From Bacteroidota bacterium (GTDB lineage Bacteria; Bacteroidota; Bacteroidia; Bacteroidales; JAGONC01), in contig JAKLFC010000011.1 in the NCBI GenBank assembly GCA_022711405.1, positions 8,255 to 72,254 on the forward strand: a stretch of 64,000 nucleotides of DNA, written 5' to 3'. Below the pieces are notes generated by a model that was not told the origin of the DNA, did not search any database, and saw only the letters and a program-made list of their open reading frames with translations. Within the stretch, counting starts at the first letter, position 1; every line of letters starts with the position of its first letter. A program made the translations under genes and the position numbers. Of the stretch, positions 1 to 28,530 are shown piece after piece.

Positions 1-269
1 ATGCTCCAGCTGCAGGCTACCTCTTCGTGCTGATAACGCAGCAGGTAGTCGGTGCTGAAGGCGATGCAGACCTGATGGTTGTGCTCCAGGATGGAGATCT
101 TCTTTCCTTCCGGCGCTGAGTGCAGGTAGATCGTACCATTTTCGAATCCGAAGTTAAAAGGCAGTACATAGGGTTTGTTCTCCCGGTCGACCATGGCGAC
201 GTGACAGACCTCACACTTTTGTATGATCTCATAGATGGTGCTGCGGGATTCTATGGGTCGGCTCTTCAT
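1..269 (-). CDS. Pyridoxamine 5'-phosphate oxidase-like flavin-binding protein (C-terminal part runs off the window start)
   Basis: My own reverse-strand translation from ATG 269-267 gives MKSRPIESRSTIYEIIQKCEVCHVAMVDRENKPYVLPFNFGFENGTIYLHSAPEGKKISILEHNHQVCIAFSTDYLLRYQHEEVACSWS with no stop down to position 1. It is absent from the supplied track because it is open-ended. Its ATG overlaps the stop of the upstream gene (ATGA, 266-269). Confidence 0.6.
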   Translation of the reverse strand, partial: MKSRPIESRSTIYEIIQKCEVCHVAMVDRENKPYVLPFNFGFENGTIYLHSAPEGKKISILEHNHQVCIAFSTDYLLRYQHEEVACSWS

Positions 270-613
270 GATGATTGCTTTTTCCTGACATTGATCAGCG
301 AATTTACAAAAGAAATGATCAGGCTGAACAGCAGCGCCCACCAGAATCCATCCACTTCGAACCGTTGCCCGATGAGGTGATCGGCGATCAGGATGATGAC
401 CGCATTGATCACCAGCAGGAACAATCCCAGGGTGATGATGGTGAAAGGGATCGTCAGGATGACCAGCAGCGGTCTGAGAAAGAAATTGAGCAGCGCCAGA
501 ACCACTGCAACCAGCAGGGCGGTCCAGATTGAATCCACATGCACGCCCGGTAAAATGTAGGCTGTAACCAGGATGACAGCGGAGGAGATCAGTAATCTTA
601 ACAGGATACGCAT
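266..613 (-). CDS. Small multi-pass membrane protein, DUF360 / holin-4-like family
   Basis: 115-aa ORF made almost entirely of hydrophobic segments (ISSAVILVTAYILPG, ALLVAVVLALLNFF, LLVILTIPFTIITLGLFLLVINAVIILIA, WWALLFSLIISFV). No phage genes nearby. Confidence 0.6.
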   Translation of the reverse strand: MRILLRLLISSAVILVTAYILPGVHVDSIWTALLVAVVLALLNFFLRPLLVILTIPFTIITLGLFLLVINAVIILIADHLIGQRFEVDGFWWALLFSLIISFVNSLINVRKKQSS

Positions 614-664
614 TTCAATAGGAATTATGATTCAAAGGTAATGGTTTGTGTGATCCGCATTCTA

Positions 665-3574
665 TTAATAAAATGAATTGACATCCATTGAAAATAAAAA
701 TTGGAACATGAATTCAGACTCCTCAGGCAGGTAAATGGTTCGTAATCCCATATCAAAGGGTGCCAGGAACCTCAGTACATGCATATCGGCCGTGAGGTCA
801 AGACCCAGTGACTGGTAGGTATCCCTGTGGAGCTGGTTTTTGCTATCCCTGTACTCACCGGTCGCATAATCCCAGAAAATATTGGCTTTCAGCCTTTTAA
901 GATAGATCACCGGACCGAGGGCCAGGTCGGGGTACCAGAACGGGAATTTATAGCCTGCTGAAAAGCTGAAGGCATCATCCAGGTAGATACCGGAATACCC
1001 CCTGGGATAATTGATCAGATCGGCAAAACGATAGGTGCCGGGATCCTTGCGCTGGTATGCCGTATACAGCCGTAGTCCATGGTGCCTGATAATGCCGGGC
1101 AGGTAGAAGTAGCCTTCCGCTGATCCGATTTCTCCGAGGGGGATCCCGCTGAAAGGCGTATGCCTGAAGTTCAGGTCGAGCGTCATTCCCCACCTGGGAT
1201 AGAGATCGCGGTACGAGGTTTCCATCTGCCCGTACGCCAGCAGCCGGTACTCCATCACCTGGAAAGTACCGGTAACAAAACGGGAAGGAGCGTTCTCGGG
1301 ATGAGTGATATGCATAAAGGTGGCTCCCACAGAAGGCTGCCATCCGACGATCCACCTCGAGACAAGGTATTGAAGAGGTACCCTGAGCATTGTCCTCAGG
1401 TTATCTTCCCTCCAGGAGTATTCGACCTTGGTATCAAGCGAATCATAATAATAGCTTTTACGCTTTCCTATCTGGTAGGTGATGTCGGCCACCGGGTAAA
1501 GCCCGCGGTAGCTGAAGTCGGCAAACCAGGTCCCCTCCCTTTCGTTCATATCGTACCGGTAGCCCAGGGTTGTGAAAGCTGTGCTGAGCTTGTTCTGCGA
1601 CATGATGGATGCCCCGGGGTAGAAGTCCTGGTTGTCCACATCCACATAAAAGGGCCCCCAGCTGTGAACATTGAACAGGTTTTTCCAGTCGCGGTAAGGT
1701 CTGCTGATGTAGTGCGAATCAGCAAGTGCTTCGCCATCAAAGAGATATCCCTCAACCGATGTGAGCGAATCGGCCAGGCTGGAAAGGATATTGTTTTGCT
1801 CTTCCACCGGTTCCCACTCCTCCGGCACCAGCGGCAGGCGTTCGATCCGGTAGCCGTCGCCCGTATAGTTTGCATAATAAAGAAAGCGGTGATCATCGGT
1901 AATGAAAGCATCCGTCGCGCCCAGTGCGACACTGGTGACCTGCCGGATGTGGTGGCCCGAAGTATCCACGGCATAGATCTGATCCACGCCTGAATATCCA
2001 CCGGTGAAATAAACATATTTTCCCGCCGCCCTGGGCAAATAAAGTTCCGTGTGCGACCATGGAGTGATCACAAACCATGATTCCGAAAGCAGATCACAGA
2101 CAATCAATGCTTTACCTTTATCGCAAACACCCACTGCGACGATCTTTCGTTGATTTTCCATCCAGTCAGGGGTCATCAGAGATATGCCGCCGGGTGCAGG
2201 AATACGTTGCCTGACAGCCCCGGTAACCGGATCGAGGATCACCAGGCGGCTCCCGTCGAGTGAATCGAGCTCCACAGCGGCTATGCTGTGTGCGTCAGGC
2301 GACAGGGCAGGAGCAAAGATTCGCTGATGACGGGTGAGATCCCTGACCCTGCCTGTTTCGATATCGTACACCTGGACGTCGGCGTAGCTCCTGTTGTCCC
2401 ACCGGGGATCTGATCTTCTGGCCGACCAGGTGACCAGGTGGTGCGAAGCGGACAGGGTCTGGTTGAAATTAAATCCCGGGGTAAGCAGGACGGTTTCCTT
2501 ACCATTCCTATCAATAAGAATGTAACGGTTCACATCGTCGATGCTGCTTTTTTCTGCCAGAATACCCCGGCCGGGTATTTCAGCCGGGTGGCGGTAGTTC
2601 ACGTAGGTCGAACTTCGGTTGGCAGAGCCGGTGGACATTAATTGTGATTCATGGTCATTCACTGTCATACCTTCATCGCCTTTCCAGCAGGAATCAAGTT
2701 CTGAGAGGATGGAGTGGTATAGTTGGGATTTGGTGAGGCCTGTGTTCTTTTTCAGGGCATGGTTCCAGGGGACCAGCATAAATGGTTTGCGTGCAGCGGT
2801 ATTCATGGCGTCTTCCCAGATGCGGGGGCCGTAGCTGATCCGTGAGGCACCCACAAGGTAATATCCCAGCATGTAATGATTGGGAACGAAATCCTTATAA
2901 GAACCATAGACTGCCTTGTCGTAGGAATAGATGCCATGCGATGCCAGCTGACCCCTGAGGGGCATGGAAAATGAGGGCTCCCTTCCCCTGCCCGAAAGAG
3001 ACCACCCGGTTTCGGCGGCTACTGCATCCCCTTCCAGGAACCAGAAGGGTACAAAAAGACCGATCATGGCGGCTGCAGCCTGTTCGCCAAAAACGTAATA
3101 AAGCCCCCTGGTGAATCCCTGGTTCATTTTTTCGATCTGCTGCACATGCCTGTATTCATGGAGGATCAACTGATCGAGCCAGGGCTGGGAATAGTTATCC
3201 TGTGGAGGCGGGGTAAATATTTCCATCCTGCGGGGTGCCCACGGTACCATGGCATCGCTGAGAACGGAGGTGGTGTGAAAGATGACCGGTAGTTTCCGGG
3301 GACTTGAAGTGAGTGTTTGCACGCCCCTGGCTGTGACCTGCTCAAGCCCCGCTGCAAAATAGTGCGCCTTTGTCTCGTAGTAATCCGGAAAAATGACCTG
3401 GAAATGCTGCGTATTGATCTGCCTCCACTTCAGCGCAGCCGGATCCTGCCCCAAATCAAAATATTGAGTAAAACCGTTCGTAGAAAGTAACAGGAATATG
3501 GGCAAGACCGCCCAAAACATGCTTCTTCCTATCTCTCTCATCTTTCCTCTCTCCTTTCTCCTCTCTCCTCTCAT
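665..3574 (-). CDS. Exported HExxH metalloprotease-like protein with beta-propeller-like middle and outer-membrane-barrel-like C-terminus
   Basis: 969-aa ORF. Signal-like MFWAVLPIFLLLSTNGFTQ, so the true start is probably ATG 3541 or 3520. HExxH in LILHEYRHVQQ. TolB/PD40-like stretches (KYVYFTGGYSGVDQIYAVD). Ends in aromatic ...VNSFY. Only 2 bp from the upstream gene. Confidence 0.6.
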   Translation of the reverse strand: MRGERRKERGKMREIGRSMFWAVLPIFLLLSTNGFTQYFDLGQDPAALKWRQINTQHFQVIFPDYYETKAHYFAAGLEQVTARGVQTLTSSPRKLPVIFHTTSVLSDAMVPWAPRRMEIFTPPPQDNYSQPWLDQLILHEYRHVQQIEKMNQGFTRGLYYVFGEQAAAAMIGLFVPFWFLEGDAVAAETGWSLSGRGREPSFSMPLRGQLASHGIYSYDKAVYGSYKDFVPNHYMLGYYLVGASRISYGPRIWEDAMNTAARKPFMLVPWNHALKKNTGLTKSQLYHSILSELDSCWKGDEGMTVNDHESQLMSTGSANRSSTYVNYRHPAEIPGRGILAEKSSIDDVNRYILIDRNGKETVLLTPGFNFNQTLSASHHLVTWSARRSDPRWDNRSYADVQVYDIETGRVRDLTRHQRIFAPALSPDAHSIAAVELDSLDGSRLVILDPVTGAVRQRIPAPGGISLMTPDWMENQRKIVAVGVCDKGKALIVCDLLSESWFVITPWSHTELYLPRAAGKYVYFTGGYSGVDQIYAVDTSGHHIRQVTSVALGATDAFITDDHRFLYYANYTGDGYRIERLPLVPEEWEPVEEQNNILSSLADSLTSVEGYLFDGEALADSHYISRPYRDWKNLFNVHSWGPFYVDVDNQDFYPGASIMSQNKLSTAFTTLGYRYDMNEREGTWFADFSYRGLYPVADITYQIGKRKSYYYDSLDTKVEYSWREDNLRTMLRVPLQYLVSRWIVGWQPSVGATFMHITHPENAPSRFVTGTFQVMEYRLLAYGQMETSYRDLYPRWGMTLDLNFRHTPFSGIPLGEIGSAEGYFYLPGIIRHHGLRLYTAYQRKDPGTYRFADLINYPRGYSGIYLDDAFSFSAGYKFPFWYPDLALGPVIYLKRLKANIFWDYATGEYRDSKNQLHRDTYQSLGLDLTADMHVLRFLAPFDMGLRTIYLPEESEFMFQFLFSMDVNSFY
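3541..3572 (-). repeat. 32-nt pure homopurine (mRNA sense) tract GAGAGGAGAGAGGAGAAAGGAGAGAGGAAAGA
   Basis: Read directly from the sequence. It lies between the stop of the 991-aa gene and the probable start (3541/3520) of the HExxH gene. Confidence 0.9.
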
Positions 3575-3576
3575 AT

Positions 3577-6552
3577 TTATTCGGGCTTCATCACCACCCC
3601 GATCCTCTTTCTCCCGTCAATGAAGATCTGAAGTGGATGCTCAAAATGGACATGGCGCAGGTATTCATCTTCATAGACCGGTGGAATGGCGGAAAGGTAA
3701 TCAAGGTCATAATACCCGTCCCTGATGTACGGATTGATCGTAAAATAACCCACCCGGAATGAGGTAAGGTTCTGGAAGAAATGGGTTCCCTGGCTGGGGT
3801 CGATGCGGTAATGCGACAGTCCTGATTCAACGATCAGCCGTGCAGCAGATATCTGGGGCCATTTGACGGGGATGCCGAGCCAGGGATCCGCAGATCCCCA
3901 GCGGCCCGGGCCTACCAGGATATAATTCAGTTTCCTCGAAATGAACCATTCGTTCATGCCACTGACTTTCATCGCAATATCGTTTGTCTTGCTGGCAATG
4001 AAAGCCTGGGGCTTTACATAAAGAATATCCTGGATATTTTTGATGGTGCCGTTGCCCAGTGCTGACCTTGAATACAGGATCGTTTTTTCGCAGGGTATCT
4101 CATCCAGTTTTTCCTCAATGACTTCCGTATTATCGACAATAGGCCGGATCTGGAGGAGGTTGAAGACCATGGGTTCTCCCTTTCCCGGGTTCAGGTCAAT
4201 GGCAAATTCGATCTCCACGGGGCGGCTCATCTCCTGTGAACCCATTTCCAGTGCCATATGGATGATCTCCGCCAGTGGAAATACGTTGTGGTTCAAGATC
4301 TTCGAGAAAGTGATGATCCTCTGGCCGGGGTATTGTGTACCGTCGCGCAGCATATTGTTCTCGAAATCCCAGGTAGAGGCAATATTTTTCAGGGAATTGT
4401 CTTTATCTGCTTCATTTACAGGAAGTTTGATCATATTGATGGCATCATCCACATCCGGTTTGAAACTGGCCGGATCCAGGTTCAGGGCATAGAACATCTT
4501 CTGCGTCTCTTTCAATGCCATCTCCGGGGAGGAGAGCTGCAGGATCTTCCGGGGATGTTTGGGTGAGAAACGGAGTGTCATGCCTCCTTCCATCACATAT
4601 TTTCCAAGACCGAATGCAACATTGGCGATGCCGTCCTCGGGTTTTTCGGGTTCGATCGGGTAGAAGTTGATGGAGCGTGCCACACCGGAAATGGAAGGAT
4701 AGAAGCGGTCGTTATACCGCTGTCCGCAGACGGTCTGCAGTACGATCCCCATCTTCTCCTCGTCGATCACGTTGGAGGTGGCGGTCATGTAGGATTTGCT
4801 GTTCCGGAAAAACGCTGAGGCATACACACATTTGATGGCCTCGCTCAGCAGGCGGATCATGAGCCGTTCGTCATTGTCGACATACGGGATCATATAGGTA
4901 TTATAGATCCCTGCAAATGGCTGGTAATGACTGTCTTCCAGCAGACTGGATGACCGGATGGCCAGAGGGTTCCTGACATAGCTGATCAGTGTGTACAGGT
5001 CCTCATGGATCCGGAAAGGAAGCCTTGCTTTGGCAAACTGTTCCAGGATCTTTTCATCCGTAGTTTCTGACAGGGCGATCCGGTACAGATCATTTTGCTC
5101 GATGAATTCGTCGAAGACGTCGGTGCAAAGGACAACCGTTTTGGGTATGGAAACGATGATATCGTCGTATTTGTCGAGGAAGCGGTATTTTTTGATCAGC
5201 GAGTCGAGGAATGCCAGTCCGCGTGCTTTTCCGCCGATGGATCCGTTTCCGATCCGTGTGAAGCTGAGGTACTCATCGAAGCTTTCCTTGTTGAATTCGG
5301 CGATCACGCCCCGTGATTTGTACATCCGGAAGCTGGCGATGGCATCGAAGATGAACCGGCGGATGGCATCCAGGTCGTTGTCAAAGTCGGCCATGCGCAG
5401 GTCGCGCAGCAGGTCGGCCAGGGGGAAAAGGGTCCTTGCGCGCAGCCACTTGGAGATGTGGTTATGGTTGATGTGGTACAGCAAAGAGTCATCGGGCACC
5501 TCGAACATCTTCATCTGCAGGGTCTTCAGGTCCGGCGCCCGGTTGATCTCCTCCATGGTCTCCGGGTCCTGGAACACGAAGTCGCCGAAGGCAAAGAACT
5601 CGATGATGAAGTTCCGCAGCTCGATCGACAGGGTTTTGGAGGTTTTGTTGATGAATCCGACCTTCAGCTCCTTGGCCCGTATTTCGTTGGCCGCATCCGA
5701 ACTCTGCAGCAGCAGCGGCATGAAGACATCGTCCTTCTTGACCTTCATGCACAATTTGATCCCGGCCTCCTTATCCATTTCACCGCCACGCTTGTAACTC
5801 ACGTCGGTGATGATCCCCAGGAGGTTGTTTTTGTATTTTTCATACAGGATGACGGCTTCATCGTAGTTGGTGGCCAGCAGGATCTTGGGTCTTCCCCTCA
5901 TCCGGAGCATTTGCTGGTGCTCATTCAACCCTTCCAGCTGGAACGCCTTCGACTGCTTGAAGATGATCTTGTAGATGTTCGGCAGGTAGCTTGAATAGAA
6001 CCGGATCGAATCCTCCACCAGGATGATGGCCTGCACCCCCACCTCGTTGACATCATGTTCCACGTTCATCTTATCCTCGATCAGCTTGATGATCGCCAGC
6101 AGGATATCAGGGTTCCCAAGCCAGCTGAAGAAGTAATCCACATAGCTGTAATCTTCCTGGCTCACTTTCATGCTGACTTCCCTGGAGAACGGAGTCAGTA
6201 CAACGATGGGCTTCCTGGGGTATTTGTTCTTGATGCGTTTGGCCAGGTCAAAGGTGCCGACGTTGTCGGCGCTCAGCATGATGATGATCAGGTCGATGCT
6301 TTCATTGTCGAGGATCTCGAAGGCTTCCTGGTTGGAGTGTGTGATCATGAACTGCGGAGGGTAGCGCAGGTTAAGGGCCACATACTCATTGAAGATCTGT
6401 TCATCGATGCGGCCGTCACCTTCCAGGATAAAGGCATCGTAGGAGCTCGACACCAGAAGCACATGGTAGATGCGCTTCTTCATCAGGTTGATGAAAGGAG
6501 TGTCGGAGAAGTAGTACCGCTTGAGGTTAAGGATCTTCGGGTTGACAGTCAT
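3577..6552 (-). CDS. Pseudo-receiver + receiver + PEP/pyruvate-binding (PPDK_N-type ATP-grasp) protein
   Basis: 991 aa. Domain 1 is HVLLVSSSYD...DLIIIMLSADN, with SS for the acidic pair and Met at the phospho-Asp position. Domain 2 is IILVEDS...LLGIITDVSY...LLLQSSD, with acceptor Asp retained. ATP-grasp signatures GGKARGLAFL and AIRSSSLLEDS..FAGIYNTY. I see no GGxTSHAA swivel-His motif. Confidence 0.75.
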   Translation of the reverse strand: MTVNPKILNLKRYYFSDTPFINLMKKRIYHVLLVSSSYDAFILEGDGRIDEQIFNEYVALNLRYPPQFMITHSNQEAFEILDNESIDLIIIMLSADNVGTFDLAKRIKNKYPRKPIVVLTPFSREVSMKVSQEDYSYVDYFFSWLGNPDILLAIIKLIEDKMNVEHDVNEVGVQAIILVEDSIRFYSSYLPNIYKIIFKQSKAFQLEGLNEHQQMLRMRGRPKILLATNYDEAVILYEKYKNNLLGIITDVSYKRGGEMDKEAGIKLCMKVKKDDVFMPLLLQSSDAANEIRAKELKVGFINKTSKTLSIELRNFIIEFFAFGDFVFQDPETMEEINRAPDLKTLQMKMFEVPDDSLLYHINHNHISKWLRARTLFPLADLLRDLRMADFDNDLDAIRRFIFDAIASFRMYKSRGVIAEFNKESFDEYLSFTRIGNGSIGGKARGLAFLDSLIKKYRFLDKYDDIIVSIPKTVVLCTDVFDEFIEQNDLYRIALSETTDEKILEQFAKARLPFRIHEDLYTLISYVRNPLAIRSSSLLEDSHYQPFAGIYNTYMIPYVDNDERLMIRLLSEAIKCVYASAFFRNSKSYMTATSNVIDEEKMGIVLQTVCGQRYNDRFYPSISGVARSINFYPIEPEKPEDGIANVAFGLGKYVMEGGMTLRFSPKHPRKILQLSSPEMALKETQKMFYALNLDPASFKPDVDDAINMIKLPVNEADKDNSLKNIASTWDFENNMLRDGTQYPGQRIITFSKILNHNVFPLAEIIHMALEMGSQEMSRPVEIEFAIDLNPGKGEPMVFNLLQIRPIVDNTEVIEEKLDEIPCEKTILYSRSALGNGTIKNIQDILYVKPQAFIASKTNDIAMKVSGMNEWFISRKLNYILVGPGRWGSADPWLGIPVKWPQISAARLIVESGLSHYRIDPSQGTHFFQNLTSFRVGYFTINPYIRDGYYDLDYLSAIPPVYEDEYLRHVHFEHPLQIFIDGRKRIGVVMKPE

Positions 6553-6563
6553 GCCGTAAGGAG

Positions 6564-9500
6564 TTACTGTTTAGCAGGGAGATGTTCTGAAAACGCATCA
6601 TCGAACCGCTTATTCAGAATATCGCAGCCGTGGTGGAACATCCGGCCGCTACTGCTCCCGCTGGTCACCTGGAAAACAAGCCGCTGCAGTTCTTTCGGAA
6701 CCGTCAGCAGCGAAAGCGCCTCCAGGTGAATGTCTTCGATACTGCTGCTCCCGTTCAGGCCGAACAAGCCCAGCAGGTTGCTCAATTGCTGGTAGCCGGT
6801 CTGCTCCACCGGACACTTCAGAACCTTTTCAAATGTCTGGATCATCCTCTGGGTGTTGGTGAAACTGCCCCCCGATTCAAAGGGCATGGAAGCCGGAAGG
6901 ATCAGATGGGCGTGCCGCGCGGTATCCGTCATGAAATAATCCTGCACCATCACAAAGTCGGCAACGGACAACCATCCGGCAACCTTCACCTTGTTGCTGG
7001 CGCACCCCAGGGGGTCTTCCCCAAAGATGAACAGGTTCTTCAGCTGCGCATTTTCAAGAAGCTCGTACAGGTTATTGACGGGTCTTGGAATGGAACGGAT
7101 CTGCCACTTTTCCTTTAACCGGTGATGCAGATCCCTGTCGCTGATAGGTATACCGCCGATGCCAAGATCAGGTGAAATCCCCATGTCCGTCAGTCCCTGG
7201 GAATTGTTCTTTTCCTTGAGGACAAGGATGCCATTGGCTGTCTTTCCCAGCTTGCCCGTGAGCATGGCAAGGTTGTAGATTTCCGAGGCAGTGCCGGCGC
7301 AGCATTCCTTTTCCGAGAAGACAATGATGGCGTTCATTTCCCGGTTGATCTCCTTGGCAAACTCAATGACCTGATCCATGATGGGCACTCCCGAAGCGTT
7401 CAGCAAACCGACGAAGTCTTCCTTCAGGAGCTGCTGCCTGTAGGTGTCGAAATTGTCACAGTTATCATGGATGAAGAGACGGTTTTCGAACCCATTGGCC
7501 ACCAGGTAGTAATTAACAGCCCTGATAAAATGATAGTACGATTTGATGATCAGGCTGGAGTCTGCCTTCCGGATCATGGTGCTTTGCGGATGAACGGTGA
7601 CCAGCTCCACAGGGATATGGTACTGGTACTGGGCCTGATTGATCATGAAACCGGCCACGGCATTGTCGCTGTTTATTTCGGCTCCAATCAGGTAGATCTT
7701 GCTGGCATGCCGGATCTGTTCAAAGGGAACATTGTGGGACGAATCAAAATCATATCCTTTCCCCCTGTTCAGGTAATGGAAGCTACTGATATTGTTTGTG
7801 TTGACAGCGGCTCTTGCCATTTTCTGGACCAGGTACAGCTCCTCATTGGTCAGCCGTGCCCCTGCAAAAAATGCATTATCGTCGGCTTTCACACTATGGA
7901 TGCGCTCCCGGATGATCCGGAACGCCTCGTCAAATCCGATTTCGTGAAAATGTCCGTTTTCCCTGTGAAGCGGCCGGGTGATCCGTGAACGGTCATTGAT
8001 GTAGTGATACCCGAATTTGGCGTACCGGCACAGGTTGCCGTCCTTGTTGATCTCTCCTTCCGTGCCGGTGACCCTCATCACAAAACCGTTCTTATGATGA
8101 AGCATGATGTTGCATCCCACCGAGCAATAATTACAGATGGTCTCTACTGGCTGCAGACTGACCGGCCCTGGCTTGAAGGGTACATTTTCGGTGATCGCAC
8201 CTGTGGGGCAGGTGGATATGCAAAGTCCGCACGATTCACAGGTCGTATCCTGCAATGCATTTCCCATACTGGGTGCCACGAAGGTGTCAAATCCCCGGTT
8301 GATCAGTCCCAGTGCATTGGCCCCGACGACCTCCCGGCATATGCGGATACAGCGTGAGCAGAGGATGCATTTGTTGTTGTCGATTTCGATGTAGGGGTGT
8401 CTGAAGTCGATGGCATACTCGTTGAATCCCCCCATATAGCTGTTCTGTTCTGCTTCGTATTCAGAGCAGTACCTTTTCAGGTCGCAGGTGAAATATTCCA
8501 CGCAACCGCACTCCAGGCAGCGTTGTGTTTCGTGCAGGGCCACCTTTTCGCTTGGGTATCCCAGTTCCACTTCATGGAAGTTCATGCGGTCTGCCGGATC
8601 CAGGGTGGGCATCTCTTCTCTGGCCTGATGTGCGAAGTGAGCGGTATAATCCTCCGGAGTTTGTGTTTTGAAATGATCTTTTTTGCTCAGGAATTCTTTT
8701 TTAACGGATTCGACCGGTTTTCCCATCAGGAAAAGGTGGCAGCTGCGGGAGGCGACCTTTGCCTGCCCGATGGCCTGTATGAGGGTGGCCGGTCCGGTGA
8801 CACCGTCGCCCGCGGCAAAGATGGAAGGGATGCCGGTCTGCAGGGTAAGAGGATCTGCATCGATATCTCCCCACCTGTTGAGCTTCAGTTCTGCGCCGTC
8901 ATGGTGTTTGTTGATGCCATCCAGGAATTTGGCATCCGTTTTCTGGCCTATGGCGGCCAGGATATAATCCACTTCCACGTCAAATTCCGAACCTTCAATG
9001 GGTATGGGCCGGCGGCGCCCCGACCTGTCGGGTTCGCCCAGCTGCATTTTCTGGCAGGTGATGGATTTAACCATCCCTTTTTCGTCCTTATTGATCCTTG
9101 CCGGATTCGTCAGGAGCATGTAGTCGACTCCTTCCAGCCTGGATTCATGTATTTCGATGGGATTGGCCGGCATTTCCTTTTCTGTGCGGCGGTAGATGAC
9201 GATCACTTCCTTTGCTCCGCATCGCCGTGCGGTCCGGCAGCAGTCCATGGCGGTGTTACCGCCTCCGATCACCGCAACCCTCTTGCCGCGGAAGTTGAAC
9301 CGTTCACCGGTCAGTTCCATCTGCTTCAGAAAATCGATACCCGAGAACACGTTGGTGGCGTCTTCTCCTTCACAGCCGATGTTGGTGCCCTTTTGAGAGC
9401 CTATGGTGAGGATCACCGCATCGTACTTCCTTTTGATCTCTTCATAATCCTGGTTTTCTCCAAACCTTTTATTGAAATGGATCTGGACACCCAGTTCGGT

Positions 9501-10268
9501 GATGTTGTCCACTTCTTTTTGCAGCAGGTTGTTGGGAAGCCGGTATTCGGGGATACCATACCGGAGCCATCCGCCAGCCAGGGGAGCGGCCTCAAAAAGA
9601 TCTACCTGGTGTCCTTCTTTTTGCAGGAAGAAGCCACAGGAAAGGCCTGCGGGACCTGCTCCGATCACGGCGACTTTTTTCCCGGTGGAAGGCTTTACCT
9701 GTGGTTTCCATTTATTGGGCGATTCAAGATCGAAGTCCGATGCAAAACGTTTCAGGTAATCAATGCCCACCGCATGACCTTCGCTGAGCAGGTTGCGCCG
9801 GCATGCCACTTCGCAGGGTCTGACGCATACCCTTCCGCAGATGGCGGGCAAGGGATTGGTCTCCTTTATTAAAGCGACCGCTTCGTGATACATCCCTTTT
9901 TCGATCAGGGAAATATACCCCTGCACGTCCACCCCGGCCGGACAGGTATCCTTGCAGGGCCCGATGCAGTCCGCATAATGATTGCTGACCAGCAGGTTGA
10001 GCGCCGTCCTTCGTGCGCCGCGTATCCGTTCGTTATCGGTGCAGATCTTCATCCCCTCGCTGATCCTTGTGGAGCAGGAAGGTTGAAGTCCGCGGAAGCC
10101 TTCGACTTCGACCACGCAGAGGTAACAGGACGTATAGGGCACCAGCCGGGGATCATGGCAAAGGGTGGGTATCTGGATGCCATGCCGGCAGGCAAGCTCC
10201 AGGATGGTCTCACCGGGTTTGCCTTTGAGTATCTTTTCGTTGAGAATTATGTTCACTTCATCACTCAT
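6564..10268 (-). CDS. Mosaic redox subunit: 2Fe-2S ferredoxin + GltD-like NAD(P)H flavoenzyme + 2x[4Fe-4S] + NuoG/FdhA-like molybdopterin-oxidoreductase domain without Cys/Sec ligand
   Basis: 1234 aa. CHDPRLVPYTSCYLCVVEV (2Fe-2S). CIGPCKDTCPAG...CGRVCVRPCEVAC (GltD Fe-S region). VAVIGAGPAGLSCG and VAVIGGGNTAMDCCR (two Rossmann motifs). CILCSRCIRIC and CESCGLCISTCP (ferredoxin motifs). CNYCSVGCN (MopB cluster). TNEELYLVQKMARAAVNTNNISSFHYLNRG where formate dehydrogenases have C/U-H. Confidence 0.8.
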   Translation of the reverse strand: MSDEVNIILNEKILKGKPGETILELACRHGIQIPTLCHDPRLVPYTSCYLCVVEVEGFRGLQPSCSTRISEGMKICTDNERIRGARRTALNLLVSNHYADCIGPCKDTCPAGVDVQGYISLIEKGMYHEAVALIKETNPLPAICGRVCVRPCEVACRRNLLSEGHAVGIDYLKRFASDFDLESPNKWKPQVKPSTGKKVAVIGAGPAGLSCGFFLQKEGHQVDLFEAAPLAGGWLRYGIPEYRLPNNLLQKEVDNITELGVQIHFNKRFGENQDYEEIKRKYDAVILTIGSQKGTNIGCEGEDATNVFSGIDFLKQMELTGERFNFRGKRVAVIGGGNTAMDCCRTARRCGAKEVIVIYRRTEKEMPANPIEIHESRLEGVDYMLLTNPARINKDEKGMVKSITCQKMQLGEPDRSGRRRPIPIEGSEFDVEVDYILAAIGQKTDAKFLDGINKHHDGAELKLNRWGDIDADPLTLQTGIPSIFAAGDGVTGPATLIQAIGQAKVASRSCHLFLMGKPVESVKKEFLSKKDHFKTQTPEDYTAHFAHQAREEMPTLDPADRMNFHEVELGYPSEKVALHETQRCLECGCVEYFTCDLKRYCSEYEAEQNSYMGGFNEYAIDFRHPYIEIDNNKCILCSRCIRICREVVGANALGLINRGFDTFVAPSMGNALQDTTCESCGLCISTCPTGAITENVPFKPGPVSLQPVETICNYCSVGCNIMLHHKNGFVMRVTGTEGEINKDGNLCRYAKFGYHYINDRSRITRPLHRENGHFHEIGFDEAFRIIRERIHSVKADDNAFFAGARLTNEELYLVQKMARAAVNTNNISSFHYLNRGKGYDFDSSHNVPFEQIRHASKIYLIGAEINSDNAVAGFMINQAQYQYHIPVELVTVHPQSTMIRKADSSLIIKSYYHFIRAVNYYLVANGFENRLFIHDNCDNFDTYRQQLLKEDFVGLLNASGVPIMDQVIEFAKEINREMNAIIVFSEKECCAGTASEIYNLAMLTGKLGKTANGILVLKEKNNSQGLTDMGISPDLGIGGIPISDRDLHHRLKEKWQIRSIPRPVNNLYELLENAQLKNLFIFGEDPLGCASNKVKVAGWLSVADFVMVQDYFMTDTARHAHLILPASMPFESGGSFTNTQRMIQTFEKVLKCPVEQTGYQQLSNLLGLFGLNGSSSIEDIHLEALSLLTVPKELQRLVFQVTSGSSSGRMFHHGCDILNKRFDDAFSEHLPAKQ

Positions 10269-10295
10269 GGAAAATTCTCCTCATACCTTCAGTAG

Positions 10296-12074
10296 TTAGG
10301 ATAACCTGATCGCTTCGAACTTGCATTTAGAAAAGCATACACCGCACCTGATGCATTTTTCCTGGTGAATGAAATGCACCTGTTTCCGTTCGCCGGTGAT
10401 GGCTTCCACCGGACAATTCTTTGCACAGACCATGCATCCGGTACACTTGTCAGGGATGACCTCGTAGGTCAGCAGCTGCTTGCAGGCCTTGGCCGGACAT
10501 TTTTTATCCCGGATATGGGCTTCGTATTCGTCCCGGAAATATTTGATGGTGGTCAGCACCGGATTGGGGGCAGTCTGTCCCAGGCCGCACAGGGAGCTTT
10601 CCTTGATCTGGAAGGCAAGGTCCTGCAGCCGTTCGATATCACCCTGTTCTCCTTTGCCTTCGGTGATGCGGGTGAGTACTTCGAGCATTCGTTTGGTTCC
10701 GATGCGGCAGAAGGTACATTTCCCGCAGGATTCTTTCCGTGTGAAATCAAGGAAAAATTTGGCCACATCCACCATGCAGGTGGTTTCGTCCATGACCACC
10801 ATTCCTCCTGATCCCATGATGGCGCCTGTAGCGGTAACGGAGTCATAATCGATGGGCGTATGGGCCAGGTACTCAGGTATGCAGCCTCCTGAAGGGCCTC
10901 CCAGCTGCACTGCCTTGAATTTCTTGCCATCGCGGATGCCGCCGCCCAGCTTGAAGATGATGTCATTGATGCTGATACCCATGGGTACCTCCACCAGTCC
11001 CGACCGCCGTATTTTTCCTGCCAGTGCGAAGACCTTGGTCCCCTTGCTTTTCTCCGTGCCGTACCTGGCATAGGCTTCCGCGCCGTTGAGGATGATCCAC
11101 GGAATGTTGGCATAGGTCTCCACGTTGTTGATGTTGGTCGGCTTTTTCCATAGGCCGGAAGAGGCGGGAAACGGAGGCCGTTTGCGCGGCATTCCTCTTT
11201 CACCTTCCACAGAAGCGATGAGGGCTGTTTCTTCCCCGCAGACAAAAGCGCCCGCGCCTTCTTTAATATGAATGTCGAAATCAAAACCCTGTATCCCCAG
11301 GATGTTGTTCCCCAGGTAACCTTTCCGGCGGGCCTGTTCAAGGGCTATATTGAGCCGCTTGATGGCCAGCGGGTACTCCGCCCGGCAATAGATCACTCCC
11401 CCGGTAGCCTCGATGGCATAGGCCCCGATGATCATCCCTTCGAGCACGGAATGCGGGTCCCCCTCCAGTACCGACCGGTCCATGAACGCTCCCGGATCCC
11501 CTTCATCCGCATTGCAGATGATGTACTTTTCGGTAGCTTTGTTATCATTGGCAAATTTCCACTTCAGCCCTGTCGGGAAACCTCCTCCGCCACGGCCGCG
11601 CAATCCTGAGGAAATGACCGTCTGGACCACATCCATGCGGGAGATCCGCTGGCCGGCTATTTTTTTTATCGCACGGTATCCCTGCCTGGCTTCATACTCG
11701 TCGATGTTCTCAGGATCAATATAACCACAGTTTCTCAGCGTGATCTTGATCTGGTTCTGCATGAAATCATTATCCGCGGTAGGAAAGAGATCTGTCTGGA
11801 CCACATGCTCTTTTACCGGGGTATGATGGATGACATGCCGGTCGATGATCTCCACGGCCCTGATCTCATCGATTTCCCCATACAGGTAGGAACCTGTCTG
11901 GTCAATGATCTCCACCAGCGGTTCGCGGTAACACATCCCGATACAGCTGGTCTTCTTAAGATCAAAATCAAGGTTCTCAGCCTGGCGCAACGCCTGGATC
12001 TTTTCGTAGGTTTTCCCTGCACCGGCTGCGATCCCGCAGCTTCCCAGCCCGACAATGACTTTTATTTTTTCCAT
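10296..12074 (-). CDS. NuoF/HydB-like NAD(P)H-binding FMN iron-sulfur flavoprotein
   Basis: 592 aa. Thioredoxin-like 2Fe-2S N-domain, GRGGGGFPTGLKWKF, ESCGKCTFCRIG, and C-terminal ferredoxin motifs CTGCMVCAKNCP and CIRCGVCFSKC. Confidence 0.85.
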   Translation of the reverse strand: MEKIKVIVGLGSCGIAAGAGKTYEKIQALRQAENLDFDLKKTSCIGMCYREPLVEIIDQTGSYLYGEIDEIRAVEIIDRHVIHHTPVKEHVVQTDLFPTADNDFMQNQIKITLRNCGYIDPENIDEYEARQGYRAIKKIAGQRISRMDVVQTVISSGLRGRGGGGFPTGLKWKFANDNKATEKYIICNADEGDPGAFMDRSVLEGDPHSVLEGMIIGAYAIEATGGVIYCRAEYPLAIKRLNIALEQARRKGYLGNNILGIQGFDFDIHIKEGAGAFVCGEETALIASVEGERGMPRKRPPFPASSGLWKKPTNINNVETYANIPWIILNGAEAYARYGTEKSKGTKVFALAGKIRRSGLVEVPMGISINDIIFKLGGGIRDGKKFKAVQLGGPSGGCIPEYLAHTPIDYDSVTATGAIMGSGGMVVMDETTCMVDVAKFFLDFTRKESCGKCTFCRIGTKRMLEVLTRITEGKGEQGDIERLQDLAFQIKESSLCGLGQTAPNPVLTTIKYFRDEYEAHIRDKKCPAKACKQLLTYEVIPDKCTGCMVCAKNCPVEAITGERKQVHFIHQEKCIRCGVCFSKCKFEAIRLS

Positions 12075-12099
12075 AGGAGCATGGATAGGATTGTACCAA

Positions 12100-12642
12100 T
12101 CAGTTATTTTCTTTGATGCGGATATCCCGTATGATCCGCACAGCTTCCTTGCCTGTCAGTTTTCCAAAGACCTCTCCGGCCACCATCATAACGGGAGCCA
12201 GCGAACAGCAACCCAGGCATGCCACCGATTCAAGGGTAAACAGACCATCCGGGGTGGTCTCGCCATCTTTGACGTTAAGGGCTTCTTTCAGCGAGTCGGT
12301 GATCGTGTTGGCATTCTGCACATGGCAGGCGGTGCCGTGGCAGACCTTGATGATGTTCTTACCCACCGGGTGGAGCCGGAACTGTGCGTAAAAGGTGGCC
12401 ACACCATACAGATCGCTCAGCTTCAGTCCCGTGGCATCGGAAATCCTTTCAAATACATTCCAGGGTATATAGCCATAGATCTCCTGAGCACCCTGAAGCA
12501 AGGGAATGAGGCTGCCCTTTTTCCCCCGGTATTTCTCAAGCAGGGGCTCCAAAAGAGAGAGATCCGCAGGGTCCTGCTCCTGTTTTACCGTTTCCTGGTG
12601 TATCCGTGTAATTCGCATGGTTTCATGAATTGAAATGGACAT
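12100..12642 (-). CDS. NuoE/HydC-like [2Fe-2S] subunit
   Basis: 180 aa. CHGTACHV ... CLGCCSLAP. 25 bp upstream of the NuoF-like gene. An alternative start at ATG 12618 is possible. Confidence 0.8.
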   Translation of the reverse strand: MSISIHETMRITRIHQETVKQEQDPADLSLLEPLLEKYRGKKGSLIPLLQGAQEIYGYIPWNVFERISDATGLKLSDLYGVATFYAQFRLHPVGKNIIKVCHGTACHVQNANTITDSLKEALNVKDGETTPDGLFTLESVACLGCCSLAPVMMVAGEVFGKLTGKEAVRIIRDIRIKENN

Positions 12643-12662
12643 GTAAAAGTAAAAAAATGTTT

Positions 12663-12670
12663 CAAAGGTG
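12663..12670 (-). promoter_or_regulatory. Near-consensus -7 box CACCTTTG upstream of the NuoE-like operon
   Basis: About 20 nt upstream of ATG 12642. The first base deviates from TAnnTTTG. Confidence 0.3.
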
Positions 12671-12710
12671 CTTTAAAATGGAGGAATTATTGCCGGACGC
12701 CAGCTTTTTA

Positions 12711-12718
12711 TACTTTTG
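12711..12718 (+). promoter_or_regulatory. Bacteroidota -7 box TACTTTTG (TAnnTTTG) upstream of the DoxX gene
   Basis: The box ends 19 nt before ATG 12738. Confidence 0.4.
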
Positions 12719-12737
12719 CCTTGCAATAGGATTCCGT

Positions 12738-13220
12738 ATGAATTATTCAAACAGACAGACCATCGCACTTATCGCTCTCAGAATCGCCCTGGGCTGGCAC
12801 TTCCTGTACGAGGGACTCACCAAGATCTTTCAGCCGGGATGGACTTCCAGCACATACCTTATGGATTCCAAAGGATTTCTCAGCGGTTTTTACACGTGGA
12901 TCGCATCCCATCCTTCCGTGCTGTCAGCTGCGGATTTCCTCAATGAATGGGGTCTTACCCTGATCGGCCTTTCGCTGATCCTCGGACTTCTTACAAGGAT
13001 CAGTACCATCGCCGGAATGCTGCTCCTGCTCTTTTATTATTTCTCCCACCCTGCATGGATCGGCTTTGAATATATCTTCCCGTCTGAAGGTGCTTATTTT
13101 ATCGTTAACAAGAATATCATTGAGATTTTTGCTTTGCTGGTGATCTGTTCCTTCCCCACGGATAAAATCCTGGGAGTGGAAAGATTGATAAAAAGGAGAA
13201 AAGGTATAACTGGTGGGTGA
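12738..13220 (+). CDS. DoxX family membrane protein
   Basis: I prefer ATG 12738 (MNYSNRQTIALIALRIALGWHFLYEGLTKIF...). Four hydrophobic helices. The longer supplied ORF (from 12630) would overlap the divergent gene start. Confidence 0.65.
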   Translation: MNYSNRQTIALIALRIALGWHFLYEGLTKIFQPGWTSSTYLMDSKGFLSGFYTWIASHPSVLSAADFLNEWGLTLIGLSLILGLLTRISTIAGMLLLLFYYFSHPAWIGFEYIFPSEGAYFIVNKNIIEIFALLVICSFPTDKILGVERLIKRRKGITGG

Positions 13221-13283
13221 TAGTTATTCGTTGTTATTCATTGTCATTCAAATAATGACCACAACTAACCACAACTAACCGCA
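13221..13283. repeat. 10-bp phased repeats: TAGTTATTCG/TTGTTATTCA/TTGTCATTCA, then ACCACAACTA x2, abutting ATG 13284
   Basis: Read directly. Contains the palindrome GTCATTcaaatAATGAC. Confidence 0.8.
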
Positions 13284-14822
13284 ATGACGAATTTTTCACG
13301 CCGTGACATCATTAAAGGCCTTGCGACGCTTCCGGTGATCGGAGCGGTCGCCTACGGAGTATACCGACGTCAGAAAAGATACAGGGAACTGAACCGCAAT
13401 CTGATGGAAGACATACAGGTGCAGCTTCCCGATGAATTACCGGCGGTGAAGGGTGACAGGCTCCGCATTGGCATCATTGGCACAGGAAGCCGGGGCCGTT
13501 ACCTGCTTAAGGCACTTGGGTATGTGCAACCCGAATCCCTTGACAGATGGCAGGTAAGTGCCAGGGAAGATCCATTTTACAGGGAATACCTGCAAAACTT
13601 TCTCGAACAGGAAGACCTGAATGTGGAAGTCACAGCGGTATGCGATATTTTTGATGCCAATGCGCGGAAGGGAATGCTGGCATCCTCGAATCCGGATCGT
13701 ACGGGCACCGGAGGCAAATCCGGAAAAGAACCGGTGCGCTACAAGACCTATAAAGAGTTGTGTTCGGCATCAGATGTGGATGCCGTCATCATCGCCACAC
13801 CTGATCACTGGCATGTCCCCATGGCACTGGAAGCAGCCCGCAACGGAAAACATGTATATTGTGAGAAGCCCCTTTCATGGACCGTTGCCGAAACGTACGA
13901 GATCAGGAACGTGATCAGGGAAAGCGGAGTGGTGTTTCAGCTGGGACATCAGGGACGCCAGACCGACAGCTACCAGGTGGCCCGGTCGCTGATCCGGCAG
14001 AACGTGCTGGGCAAAGTAACCCTGATCGAGGTCTGCACGAACCGGAATGATCCCAATGGTGCCTGGGTTTACGAAATCCCGAAGGAAGCCGGCCCCGGCA
14101 ACATCGACTGGAACCAGTTCATTGGTCCTGCACCCTGGCATGAATTCAGCCTGGAACGCTTTTTCCGCTGGCGCTGCTGGTGGGATTACAGCACAGGGCT
14201 GAGCGGAGACCTGTTCACTCATGAGTTTGATGCCATGAACCAGATCCTCGACCTGGGCATTCCTCATTCTGCGGTGGCCTCCGGCGGGATCTACTTCTTC
14301 AAGGATGGCCGTACCGTCCCCGATGTGCTGAACATGTCGTTTGAGTATCCCGACCGTGACCTGACCCTTCTTTACAGCGCCACACTGGCCAGTGAAAAGA
14401 ACCGGGGAAAGGTGATCATGGGGCACGACGGTTACATGGACCTCAGCGAAACGCTGGTCATCAACGCGGATCCTCAGTCCACACGCTATCGGGAAAAAAT
14501 GGATCAGGGCCTCATCGAACCCAACAAACCTATCTATTCCTATGTCCCCGGTAAGGACAAAGTAGATGCGGTCACCTCTGCGACCGAAAAATATTTTGCG
14601 GGAAGGGGATTGCTGTATACCTACCGCGGAGGAAAAGAGGTGGATACCTCCCATCTTCACCTGAAGGAGTGGCTTAACTGCATCCGCCGTGGAAACGGAG
14701 CCCGGCCCAGCTGCCACATCGATGCAGCTTTTGAAGAGGCTATGACCGCTCACATGGGAACCATCGCCTATAAGGAAGGCAGGAGGGTTTACTGGGATAG
14801 CGGGAGAGAGAGTATTGAATAG
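13284..14822 (+). CDS. Gfo/Idh/MocA family oxidoreductase, TAT-exported
   Basis: 512 aa. Twin-arginine signal SRRDIIKGLATLPVIGAVA. GIIGTGSRGR Rossmann motif. YCEKPLS motif. Confidence 0.8.
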   Translation: MTNFSRRDIIKGLATLPVIGAVAYGVYRRQKRYRELNRNLMEDIQVQLPDELPAVKGDRLRIGIIGTGSRGRYLLKALGYVQPESLDRWQVSAREDPFYREYLQNFLEQEDLNVEVTAVCDIFDANARKGMLASSNPDRTGTGGKSGKEPVRYKTYKELCSASDVDAVIIATPDHWHVPMALEAARNGKHVYCEKPLSWTVAETYEIRNVIRESGVVFQLGHQGRQTDSYQVARSLIRQNVLGKVTLIEVCTNRNDPNGAWVYEIPKEAGPGNIDWNQFIGPAPWHEFSLERFFRWRCWWDYSTGLSGDLFTHEFDAMNQILDLGIPHSAVASGGIYFFKDGRTVPDVLNMSFEYPDRDLTLLYSATLASEKNRGKVIMGHDGYMDLSETLVINADPQSTRYREKMDQGLIEPNKPIYSYVPGKDKVDAVTSATEKYFAGRGLLYTYRGGKEVDTSHLHLKEWLNCIRRGNGARPSCHIDAAFEEAMTAHMGTIAYKEGRRVYWDSGRESIE

Positions 14823-21337: not shown

Positions 21338-22162
21338 TTAGCGTATGGAAAACAACAGGGATGTCTTTTCATCGGCCAGATACATATTATTTCTTTTTTC
21401 CAGTTCCTCAAAATCGACCTGGAAACCATCAAAATCAGGTCCATCCACACAGCAGAAGCGTATTTCATCGTTGATCTTGACCCTGCATCCGCCGCACATG
21501 CCCGTACCGTCGATCATGATGGGATTCAGGCTGACCATCGTGGGAACATTGTATTGCCGTGTAAGCCGGATGATATTCTTCATCATGGGTATGGGGCCAA
21601 TGGCATACACCAGTTTGATGTCGTACCTTTCTTCCAGGTATTTTGCCAGGGGACCCGTCACAAAACCCCGTTCGCCATAGGTGCCATCATCCGTGGTGAT
21701 GACCAGTTCATCGCAAAGGATTTCCATCTCATTTTCCAGGATGAGCATATCTTTTGTCTTTGAACCGATGATGCCAATGACATAGTTACCCGATTCCTTG
21801 AATGCCTTGGTAATATGATGCAGGATCGCTACTCCCGTTCCACCGCCGACCATGACGACAGTGCCCTTTTTATCTGTGTCTGCAGCCCTGCCCAGAGGAC
21901 CAACCACATCCTTGATGAAATCTCCCTCATTAAGGGATCGCATCAGAGCGGTAGTCTTGCCCACCACCTGGAAGATGATGGTAATGATTCCCGCAAACTC
22001 GTCTTTATCAGCCACAGTCAAAGGTATTCGCTCACCGGTGTCATTGACGCGGATGATGACAAATTGTCCCGCTTTTACTTTCCTGGCGATTTTTGGCGCT
22101 TCGATATCGAAACGGATGATCGTCCCCATCGCCATCTCTTCTTTTCGTTTGATCTGAAACAT
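21338..22162 (-). CDS. nfnA: NfnA-like (sulfide/dihydroorotate dehydrogenase-like) FAD/NAD-binding [2Fe-2S] subunit
   Basis: 274 aa. GQFVIIRV..GERIPLTV, VMVGGGTGVA, and the C-terminal cluster GMCGGCRV...CCVDGP. Confidence 0.8.
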   Translation of the reverse strand: MFQIKRKEEMAMGTIIRFDIEAPKIARKVKAGQFVIIRVNDTGERIPLTVADKDEFAGIITIIFQVVGKTTALMRSLNEGDFIKDVVGPLGRAADTDKKGTVVMVGGGTGVAILHHITKAFKESGNYVIGIIGSKTKDMLILENEMEILCDELVITTDDGTYGERGFVTGPLAKYLEERYDIKLVYAIGPIPMMKNIIRLTRQYNVPTMVSLNPIMIDGTGMCGGCRVKINDEIRFCCVDGPDFDGFQVDFEELEKRNNMYLADEKTSLLFSIR

Positions 22163-23066: not shown

Positions 23067-23089
23067 AATGATTGTAATTAAACGTGGTA

Positions 23090-23097
23090 CAAATATA
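23090..23097 (-). promoter_or_regulatory. -7 box TATATTTG upstream of the Cys-rich gene / nfnAB
   Basis: 23 nt upstream of ATG 23066, inside the 97-bp gap after the stop at 23164. Confidence 0.45.

Positions 23098-27147: not shown

Positions 27148-28530
<1,383 letters not shown>

Follow-up and report, generated by a model that had tools for sequence, protein, structure and literature searches.

The PPDK_N-type ATP-grasp domain is common to rifampin phosphotransferase (RPH, PDB entry 5HV1), phosphoenolpyruvate (PEP) synthase and pyruvate phosphate dikinase (PPDK). Here, we analyze a protein of 991 amino acids with the same domain that is encoded on the reverse strand at positions 3577-6552 of a 64,000-nucleotide stretch of a Bacteroidota genome (GenBank assembly GCA_022711405.1, contig JAKLFC010000011.1; this whole stretch is called the window in the following). 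The signature residues of the dikinases (GGK, RSS..ED and E..E..Q.R) are kept in it, but unlike RPH and the dikinases it has neither PF00391 nor a rifampin-binding or PEP/pyruvate domain and carries a C-terminal domain of 176 amino acids instead. Two N-terminal receivers are found in this protein and in none of the RPH, PEP synthase and PPDK enzymes. It is neither a PEP synthase nor a PPDK, and its family is genomically coupled to the glutamate dehydrogenase gene (gdh) and to genes for homologues of enzymes that regenerate NADPH, namely Stn, Nfn and the NADP-malic enzyme of Bacteroides.

Several described systems resemble this protein in part. In the two-component aromatic kinases HpeHI and MarK, too, the PPDK_N ATP-grasp stands apart from the body of a classical dikinase; HpeI is reportedly a bare ATP-grasp of 330 amino acids that needs HpeH with its swivel histidine. 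No gene for an HpeH-type swivel-His partner occurs near the family genes in the annotated neighbourhoods, and the protein described here has its own C-terminal domain and receivers. The glutamine synthetase adenylyltransferase GlnE uses ATP as an on/off modifier of an ammonium-assimilating enzyme and includes a homologous second module. The proposed likeness to GlnE is one of function only, with no kinship in sequence or fold, and the target proposed below is glutamate dehydrogenase (GDH) instead of glutamine synthetase, with a receiver in place of PII. PleD also places tandem CheY-like domains, only one of them phosphorylatable, in front of an enzymatic output; in our protein the order is reversed, with the pseudo-receiver first, and the output is an ATP-grasp and not GGDEF. 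Finally, the three genes directly upstream reproduce the StnA/B/C layout of the StnABC/Nfn-Bfu transhydrogenase (8OH5; PMC10482914), and no Stn operon in the excerpts of that paper considered here includes a receiver/ATP-grasp gene.

As at least 8000 clusters at 90% identity match the protein at full length, its open reading frame is no chance reading frame. An AlphaFold2 model was built from 39 diverse relatives (32-49% identity to the protein) taken from a search of representative sequences; a second profile search for diversity gave mostly the same proteins, 55-70% identical. The model (predicted local distance difference test, pLDDT, 88.4; predicted TM-score 0.83) has five parts, two CheY-like domains and the ATP-grasp among them:

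3577-6552, reverse strand: the gene under study, an A-type protein with two receivers, ATP-grasp and C-terminal domain, 991 amino acids (open reading frame, Pfam, AlphaFold2, homologue clusters)
6043-6474, reverse strand: pseudo-receiver REC1, residues ~27-170 (alignments; CheY-like fold in the model)
5593-6039, reverse strand: receiver REC2, residues ~172-320 (alignments; the tandem receivers match PleD in Foldseek)
5257-5592, reverse strand: linker, residues ~321-432, two short strands followed by helices, weakly DUF5752-like (secondary structure assigned by DSSP from the model)
4108-5256, reverse strand: PPDK_N-type ATP-grasp, residues ~433-815 (Pfam, Foldseek, residue conservation)
3580-4107, reverse strand: family-specific C-terminal alpha/beta domain, residues 816-991, 176 amino acids (model; residue conservation)

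All peptides quoted in an earlier note on this DNA are present in the translation. They are located in REC1 (DLIIIMLSADN, residues 87-97), in REC2 (IILVEDS, 176-182; GIITDVSY, 246-253; LLLQSSD, 280-286), in the ATP-grasp (GGKARGLAFL, 440-449; AIRSSSLLEDS, 531-541; FAGIYNTY, 546-553) and in the C-terminal domain (GPGRWGSADPWLGIPVKWPQIS, 881-902; PSQGTHFFQNLTS, 919-931).

Pfam assigns PPDK_N (PF01326) to residues 438-815 with an E-value of 2e-36 and gives a sub-threshold match to Response_reg; PF00391 (PEP-utilizers) and PF02896 (PEP-utilizers_C) are absent from the scan of the whole protein. The PEP synthase equivalogs of NCBIfam score far under their cut-offs (NF004881, 46.3 bits against 883; TIGR01418, 24.8 against 739.75), and PigC and RedH are matched weakly. 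Since profile and fold searches alike find neither a swivel-His domain nor a PEP/pyruvate barrel, the protein is no PEP synthase. The earlier note had read the same from the missing GGxTSHAA motif and PEP-utiliser TIM barrel, together with the nucleotide-binding signatures of PPDK_N, and had proposed the domain scan and structure prediction that now confirm the PPDK_N domain and show no swivel-His or TIM domain.

Within the ATP-grasp all 39 diverse relatives share K442, R533, S534, E539, D540 and Q801, and E780, E782 and R803 are each kept in 36-38 of them. Among the Foldseek matches of this part are rifampin phosphotransferase (5HV1, E 1e-12), HpeI (9GOJ, fourth-best, E 1e-9) and PPDK (1GGO). 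Since the catalytic and Mg-binding residues are kept in all or nearly all relatives, even at 32% identity, the domain is catalytically intact by its residues and the protein is likely an active ATP-grasp enzyme, with a conservation pattern typical of one.

The C-terminal domain contains a GxGRWG loop (881-886) after a beta strand, E909 and an SxG[ST]HFF motif (920-926). G883, R884, E909 and G922 are invariant in the 39 relatives and H924 (codon 3781-3783) occurs in 38 of them. Modelled by itself the domain reaches a pLDDT of 91.6. For residues 806-991 Pfam offers no family at E<=10, and a profile of the domain finds no match among the PDB sequences. In Foldseek the stand-alone model has its best PDB match at E 0.03 with TM <=0.31 and no match in BFVD, without any Rossmann-type hit; neither a dikinase nor an EI His-domain is found among its 50 best PDB matches. 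A degenerate swivel-His domain, with SQGTHFF as a relic of GGxTSHAA, was considered and rejected, as PF00391, the PDB profile search and Foldseek (PDB and BFVD) gave no match or no significant one. On present evidence the domain is family-specific, without recognisable relative and distinct from PF00391. In true dikinases its place is taken by the swivel-His domain and the PEP/pyruvate barrel.

The two receivers differ clearly in their active sites. REC1 has S35/S36 at the acidic pair, M92 (codon 6277-6279) at the acceptor position and no Lys. Neither the acidic pair nor the acceptor Asp occurs in REC1 of any close (23) or diverse (39) relative: the pair is replaced by S, A or C followed by S or T, and the acceptor position is occupied by M, F, S, T or L. 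REC2 keeps the complete set E180, D181, D250 (codon 5803-5805), S284 and K303, and D250 is Asp in 23 of 23 close and 32 of 39 diverse relatives. These alignments uphold the earlier reading of an SS pair and a Met acceptor in the first domain and of ED...D...S in the second; the first domain is thus a pseudo-receiver and the second an intact receiver, predicted to be phosphorylatable at D250. A conserved helical insertion, EGLNEHQxMLRMRGRPK, is found in REC2, which gives a weak Response_reg match (E 0.018) when scanned alone by Pfam at E<=10. In the Foldseek search with the model, PleD, LuxO, TorR, ArcA and other receivers were matched, and the tandem aligns with PleD at E ~1e-6 over ~300-415 alignment columns. 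The linker matches DUF5752 with E 0.01 in this protein and 1e-5 in the longer relative P0193, and in 12 of 39 family members altogether; the literature searches found no paper on DUF5752. With REC2 intact and the key ATP-grasp residues invariant, the suggestion of a phosphorylation-controlled ATP-dependent enzyme is a reasonable one.

Besides the clusters mentioned above, the representatives at 50% identity comprise 5055 matches at E<=1e-3, of which 1208 reach E<=1e-30, and in this search the architecture of ~990 amino acids is kept down to 31% identity. Members occur in metagenome-assembled genomes labelled Bacteroidales, Chlorobiota, Spirochaetales and Cloacimonetes. Exact look-ups revealed an orthologue in the gut bacteria Bacteroides thetaiotaomicron, B. 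fragilis, B. xylanisolvens, Phocaeicola vulgatus and P. plebeius; single clusters of these Bacteroides and Phocaeicola orthologues contain 2000-3700 sequences each, and one exact B. thetaiotaomicron sequence is found on more than 1000 contigs. The usual names in the databases are "phosphoenolpyruvate synthase", "PEP/pyruvate-binding domain-containing protein" and "CheY-like", and the first of them leads the metabolic reconstruction of gut bacteria and anaerobes astray. Our literature searches found no functional study of the family and nothing relevant on the combination of PPDK_N with a response regulator; a paper on R. centenum with a response regulator and a PEP synthase proved irrelevant. 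The finding goes beyond a local oddity: the family is very large and wrongly annotated, its catalytic partner domain is uncharacterised, and a clear, testable hypothesis can be put forward for its physiological role.

Two types can be distinguished in this family. A-type sequences, i.e. the protein described here (winA), Spiro_1 and the B. thetaiotaomicron orthologue, are 48-55% identical across phylum-level labels, and B-type sequences (winB, a paralogue in the same window; Cloaci_1; Spiro_2) share 45-51%, as against about 36-39% between A and B. All catalytic residues are kept in both. A and B are old orthologue groups that form an ancient paralogous pair. Longer variants also exist: the Bacteroidales proteins P0193 (1557 amino acids) and P0210 (1524 amino acids) have ~550-580 extra N-terminal residues. 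P0254 (1639 amino acids) shows two PPDK_N matches and aligns with our protein over the first 580 residues only, which may point to a partial tandem fusion or to an artefact of the assembly.

The genomic neighbourhood was searched by tblastn in two sets of 80 loci each, the first from species-level genomes with orthologues 60-72% identical to the protein, the second from distant metagenome relatives. In the distant set gdh is found in 51 loci, in 44 of these within 700 nucleotides, and among the 34 loci whose flanks both reach 2 kb or more, 26 carry it; five loci have NfnAB-like genes and two have Stn-like genes. The species set contains gdh in 13 loci, StnC-like genes within 8 kb in ten, an NfnA-like gene in one and at least two family genes in 18; a B-type gene adjoins the A-type gene in 17 or 18 of the 80 loci, nearly always in tandem. 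By a back-of-envelope estimate, which is an inference and not a computed control, gdh would fall within 8 kb of a random gene in less than 1% of cases (1-2 copies in a ~4-Mb genome). Taken over the whole family, gdh and the tandem paralogue dominate the conserved neighbourhood, and the redox linkage is real but secondary, being restricted to a minority of loci.

The arrangements themselves vary. B-A-gdh is found in Bacteroidota loci and also in Cloacimonetes (L085), there with the genes of an NtrB-like kinase and an NtrC-type regulator after gdh; A-B-gdh stands on a contig that carries a Spirochaetales-labelled protein cluster, gdh-A-PhoU in L087, B-StnABC-A in L035 and L048, and B-NfnAB-A with a divergent gdh before B in L059. 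An NfnA and GltD pair lies beside family genes in five loci (L089, L092, L127, L139, L141). That several distinct arrangements recur argues against simple inherited synteny. Two close relatives that were inspected singly have no redox genes nearby, and genes with PF00391 or PF02896 do not occur in seven annotated neighbourhoods.

Some neighbourhoods show additional features. In the Cloacimonetes loci L085 and L086 (5731-16842) the regulator after B-A-gdh is of the sigma-54 NtrC type, and ahead of this module, in divergent orientation, lie a gene for a Rex-like repressor and the operon of a bifurcating hydrogenase of the HydABC type. Genes like PstB, PstA, PstC and PstS, or PhoU, adjoin the family gene in L001-L003, L009, L012, L021, L031 and L082 and in L087 (13018-13689); these loci represent one Lentimicrobium-like clade, with a glutaminase gene divergent upstream, and one unrelated contig, so that the adjacency may reflect synteny or a phosphate link. 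In L042 and L048 (about 7500-7970) a protein of 151 amino acids with repeated E..E..RH motifs, by eye possibly rubrerythrin- or ferritin-like, is inserted between the StnC-like and the family gene.

The orthologue of B. thetaiotaomicron is 56% identical to our protein. Its gene is divergent from a first gdh gene, and on its other side, in convergent orientation, follow (catalase), a second gdh and maeB, the gene of the NADP-malic enzyme. In these B. thetaiotaomicron-type genomes (L169-L171, 6332-17036) the two gdh genes that enclose the orthologue encode proteins of 445 and 444 amino acids, and the catalase gene is inserted in some strains only. Neither Stn nor Nfn occurs within 8 kb on either side of the Bacteroides orthologues. 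From the gene order relative to BT1969 (maeB, PMC8865466) and BT1971 (catalase, PMC12596196) the orthologue would be BT1972, flanked by the gdh genes BT1970 and BT1973. The literature searches found nothing on BT1970, BT1972 or BT1973 nor on reversible GDH inactivation in Bacteroides, and the gene is not mentioned in a 2026 mSphere paper on glutamate in B. thetaiotaomicron.

In the window itself the A copy belongs to a Stn operon, and the B copy has gdh and NfnAB-like genes as neighbours. Apart from the gene under study, the operon around the A copy and the gene downstream of it are made up as follows:

12100-12642, reverse strand: StnA/HydC-like NuoE-type [2Fe-2S] subunit, 180 amino acids (PF01257, E 1e-48)
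10296-12074, reverse strand: StnB/HydB-like NuoF-type FMN subunit, 592 amino acids (Pfam, NCBIfam)
6564-10268, reverse strand: StnC-like subunit, 1234 amino acids, with [2Fe-2S], GltD-like NADPH/FAD and NuoG/FdhF-like modules (Pfam, NCBIfam, PDB)
665-3574, reverse strand: secreted TolB/DPP-IV-propeller-like protein, 969 amino acids, 2 nucleotides downstream of the gene under study (weak TolB/DPPIV_N matches)

The spacers from the NuoE-like over the NuoF-like and StnC-like genes to the family gene, which lies downstream of the latter, amount to 25, 27 and 11 nucleotides; the gene is thus embedded in a redox operon, as had been noticed before. The NuoF-type subunit contains Complex1_51K, NADH_4Fe-4S and two Fer4 domains and an N-terminal thioredoxin-like 2Fe-2S domain. 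The StnC-like protein matches 8OH5_C (E 2e-221), 9BOV_A (E 9e-241) and 9N5U_A (E 8e-191), of which the first is StnC of the Sporomusa ovata StnABC transhydrogenase and the last was named NfnA by its depositors. Its modules appear in the same order, [2Fe-2S]-GltD-NuoG/FdhF, as in the StnC architecture described in PMC10482914. By homology, these three genes are predicted to encode a Stn-type electron-bifurcating NADPH:ferredoxin/NAD+ transhydrogenase. The downstream gene for the 969-amino-acid protein may be co-transcribed; none of the first 84 related loci (L001-L084) contains a homologue, and neither this gene nor the DoxX and GFO/IDH/MocA genes are conserved neighbours of the family in the related loci. 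A sigma-70 promoter and terminator scan of positions 1-13400, with a model unsuited to Bacteroidota, performed no better than on shuffled sequences.

The surroundings of the B copy are composed of:

27175-28530, forward strand: glutamate dehydrogenase, 451 amino acids (ELFV_dehydrog, E 3e-91)
23164-27111, reverse strand: B-type paralogue, 1315 amino acids (sequence comparison with the A-type protein)
22197-23120, reverse strand: Zn-ribbon protein, downstream of the B-type paralogue (Pfam)
21338-22162, reverse strand: PyrK/NfnA-like protein, downstream of the B-type paralogue (Pfam)
19523-21325, reverse strand: GltD/NfnB-like protein, 600 amino acids, downstream of the B-type paralogue (Pfam)

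Here gdh and the B-type gene are divergent with a spacer of 63 nucleotides. The paralogue is 37% identical to the A-type protein over 971 amino acids, with all key residues kept, and its extra N-terminal region of ~330 amino acids consists of two ~125-amino-acid repeats; Pfam gives no match for the N-terminal extensions of this protein, P0193 or P0210. The GltD/NfnB-like protein has an N-terminal extension of ~150 amino acids when compared with the NfnB-type chains of ~470 amino acids among the PDB matches.

From the conserved architecture and the recurring neighbours we infer, tentatively, that the protein is a receiver-gated ATP-dependent modifying enzyme controlling the GDH-dependent, NADPH-consuming assimilation of ammonium, which is quite possible rather than probable. 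According to this proposal a histidine kinase would phosphorylate D250. The pair of receiver and pseudo-receiver could then drive homodimerisation or A/B heterodimerisation in analogy to PleD and so turn on the ATP-grasp, which would spend ATP to phosphorylate an acceptor that binds to the C-terminal domain, or to modify it in another way. The GxGRWG loop, R884, E909 and H924 might form the site of this acceptor or of a phospho-carrier. The physiological target would be the node of GDH- and NADPH-dependent ammonium assimilation, most likely GDH itself, which would be switched on and off post-translationally.

Several observations weigh against this proposal. The connection with GDH is guilt by association, drawn from gene positions, and the role of H924 is a guess in a domain without recognisable relative. 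To our knowledge, every characterised PPDK_N enzyme uses the swivel histidine of PF00391, which is absent here. No histidine kinase gene adjoins the family gene in the window. In the protein's own orthologue group gdh and Stn occur in only 13 and 10 of the 80 species loci, and 53 of these loci have neither gdh, glutaminase, Stn nor Nfn within their flanks. Related genomes are non-independent samples, and raw counts therefore make the support look stronger than it is. In B. thetaiotaomicron the inferred gdhA (BT1970) is followed directly downstream by the catalase gene, and the family gene, 3' end foremost, comes only after that.

A more far-reaching version of this proposal, namely that the A/B pair represents a new protein-modifying ATP-grasp class in which the C-terminal domain replaces the swivel histidine as phospho-carrier or acceptor site and which reversibly switches NADP(H)-dependent GDH in anaerobes including gut Bacteroides, is unlikely at the moment. 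A literature lead supports the main proposal: in 1996 Baggio and Morrison reportedly described "trans-acting gene(s)" near gdhA of B. thetaiotaomicron, with a complementing fragment of about 3 kb. If the version just given were true, these genes would obtain a molecular identity, although the trans-acting factor may be something other than the family gene. Work from the 1980s is reported to have found a reversible in-vivo inactivation of the B. fragilis GDH; it too might be explained in this way. We know of no classical GlnD/GlnE-type machinery described in these organisms. Were the link real, Bacteroidota and other anaerobes would tie GDH-dependent ammonium assimilation to the supply of NADPH by Nfn, Stn and malic enzyme, and two-component signalling would gain a new type of output and the PPDK_N ATP-grasp superfamily a new catalytic partner domain.

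The same domains could also belong to a receiver-regulated small-molecule kinase, dikinase or ligase that acts on a metabolite of the 2-oxoglutarate/glutamate/NADPH node (for instance on the enolate of an oxo acid or on a hydroxyl, in the manner of PEP synthase, rifampin phosphotransferase, HpeHI and PigC) and modifies no protein, which we regard as possible, if somewhat unlikely. The nearest structures, rifampin phosphotransferase and HpeI, and the weak NCBIfam matches to PigC and RedH point in this direction, and a Gly-rich loop after a beta strand with an invariant Arg, an invariant Glu and a near-invariant His is typical for a site that binds a small ligand or phosphate. All characterised PPDK_N enzymes known to us act on small molecules, with the exception of the plant glucan dikinases. 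Neighbours such as gdh and the genes of glutaminase, aminotransferase and RidA would suit a metabolic enzyme as well. Two receivers and the sensor-like repeats of the B-type paralogue suggest a regulator instead, and no transporter or pathway genes are consistently nearby, the conserved neighbour being a single enzyme, GDH.

The earlier note had proposed that the protein acts on or senses the neighbouring redox complex; it might, for example, phosphorylate a subunit of the Stn or Nfn transhydrogenase or respond to the state of NAD(P)H or ferredoxin. The tight operon in the window, with the family gene 11 nucleotides after the StnC-like gene, fits this, and so do the recurrence of Stn (10 of 80 species loci), the bracketing of the Stn operon by B and A in two loci, the position of NfnAB between B and A in a third and the NfnAB-like genes beside family genes in five metagenome loci; the GxGxxG-like C-terminal loop could, judged from its sequence, bind a dinucleotide. 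The co-occurrence with GltD-like and other redox genes, which the note had wished to see counted, is thus recurrent (Stn in 10 and 2 of 80 loci, Nfn in 5 of 80), but most loci are without it. In the distant set two loci with Stn and five with Nfn face 51 with gdh, the Bacteroides orthologues stand between two gdh genes with no Stn or Nfn in the 8 kb to either side, and the C-terminal domain yields no Rossmann-type match, all of which makes a direct action on the redox complex quite unlikely. Since the recurring redox complexes are all homologues of NADPH-linked transhydrogenases, a function at the NADPH/2-oxoglutarate/glutamate node fits better than sensing of the complex itself.

In most loci no histidine kinase adjoins the family gene, and this would be expected for a self-contained phosphorelay, a signal generator in which the ATP-grasp loads H924 and the phosphoryl group is passed to D250 of the same or of the partner protein. 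The near-invariant [ST]-H motif recalls the T-S-H of the swivel domain, and the paired paralogues could phosphorylate each other. Such a relay is nevertheless very unlikely: the C-terminal domain resembles no phospho-histidine carrier fold, no output domain would be left, and 7 of 39 relatives without the acceptor Asp keep all examined residues of the ATP-grasp and the C-terminal domain. A non-catalytic adaptor, whose ATP-grasp binds the nucleotide as a signal and which regulates its partners by binding, would agree with the lack of a known substrate and with the frequent action of receiver proteins through protein-protein contacts; it is highly improbable given catalytic and Mg-binding residues that, unlike those of a pseudoenzyme, are invariant or nearly so to 32% identity. 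A genuine PEP synthase or PPDK with its swivel-His and PEP-binding partner encoded elsewhere, for which the database name "phosphoenolpyruvate synthase" and HpeI (9GOJ), a PPDK_N domain that reportedly works with a separate His-domain protein, could be quoted, is almost certainly wrong, as PF00391 and PF02896 are found neither in cis nor in the seven annotated neighbourhoods, the NCBIfam scores are far under the cut-offs and the conserved C-terminal domain fills the place of the missing domains.

Further genes of the window belong to other systems. Between positions 13284 and 19427 three GFO/IDH/MocA oxidoreductases, a xylose-isomerase-like TIM-barrel protein and a 3-keto-disaccharide hydrolase are encoded, a cluster that looks like a sugar-oxidation pathway of the 3-keto-glycoside type. 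At 50810-60984 three large secreted proteins with C-terminal sorting domains of type IX secretion follow each other; the first two of them (1774 and 1048 amino acids) also contain lamin-tail and PKD domains, which fits the origin of this DNA from Bacteroidota.

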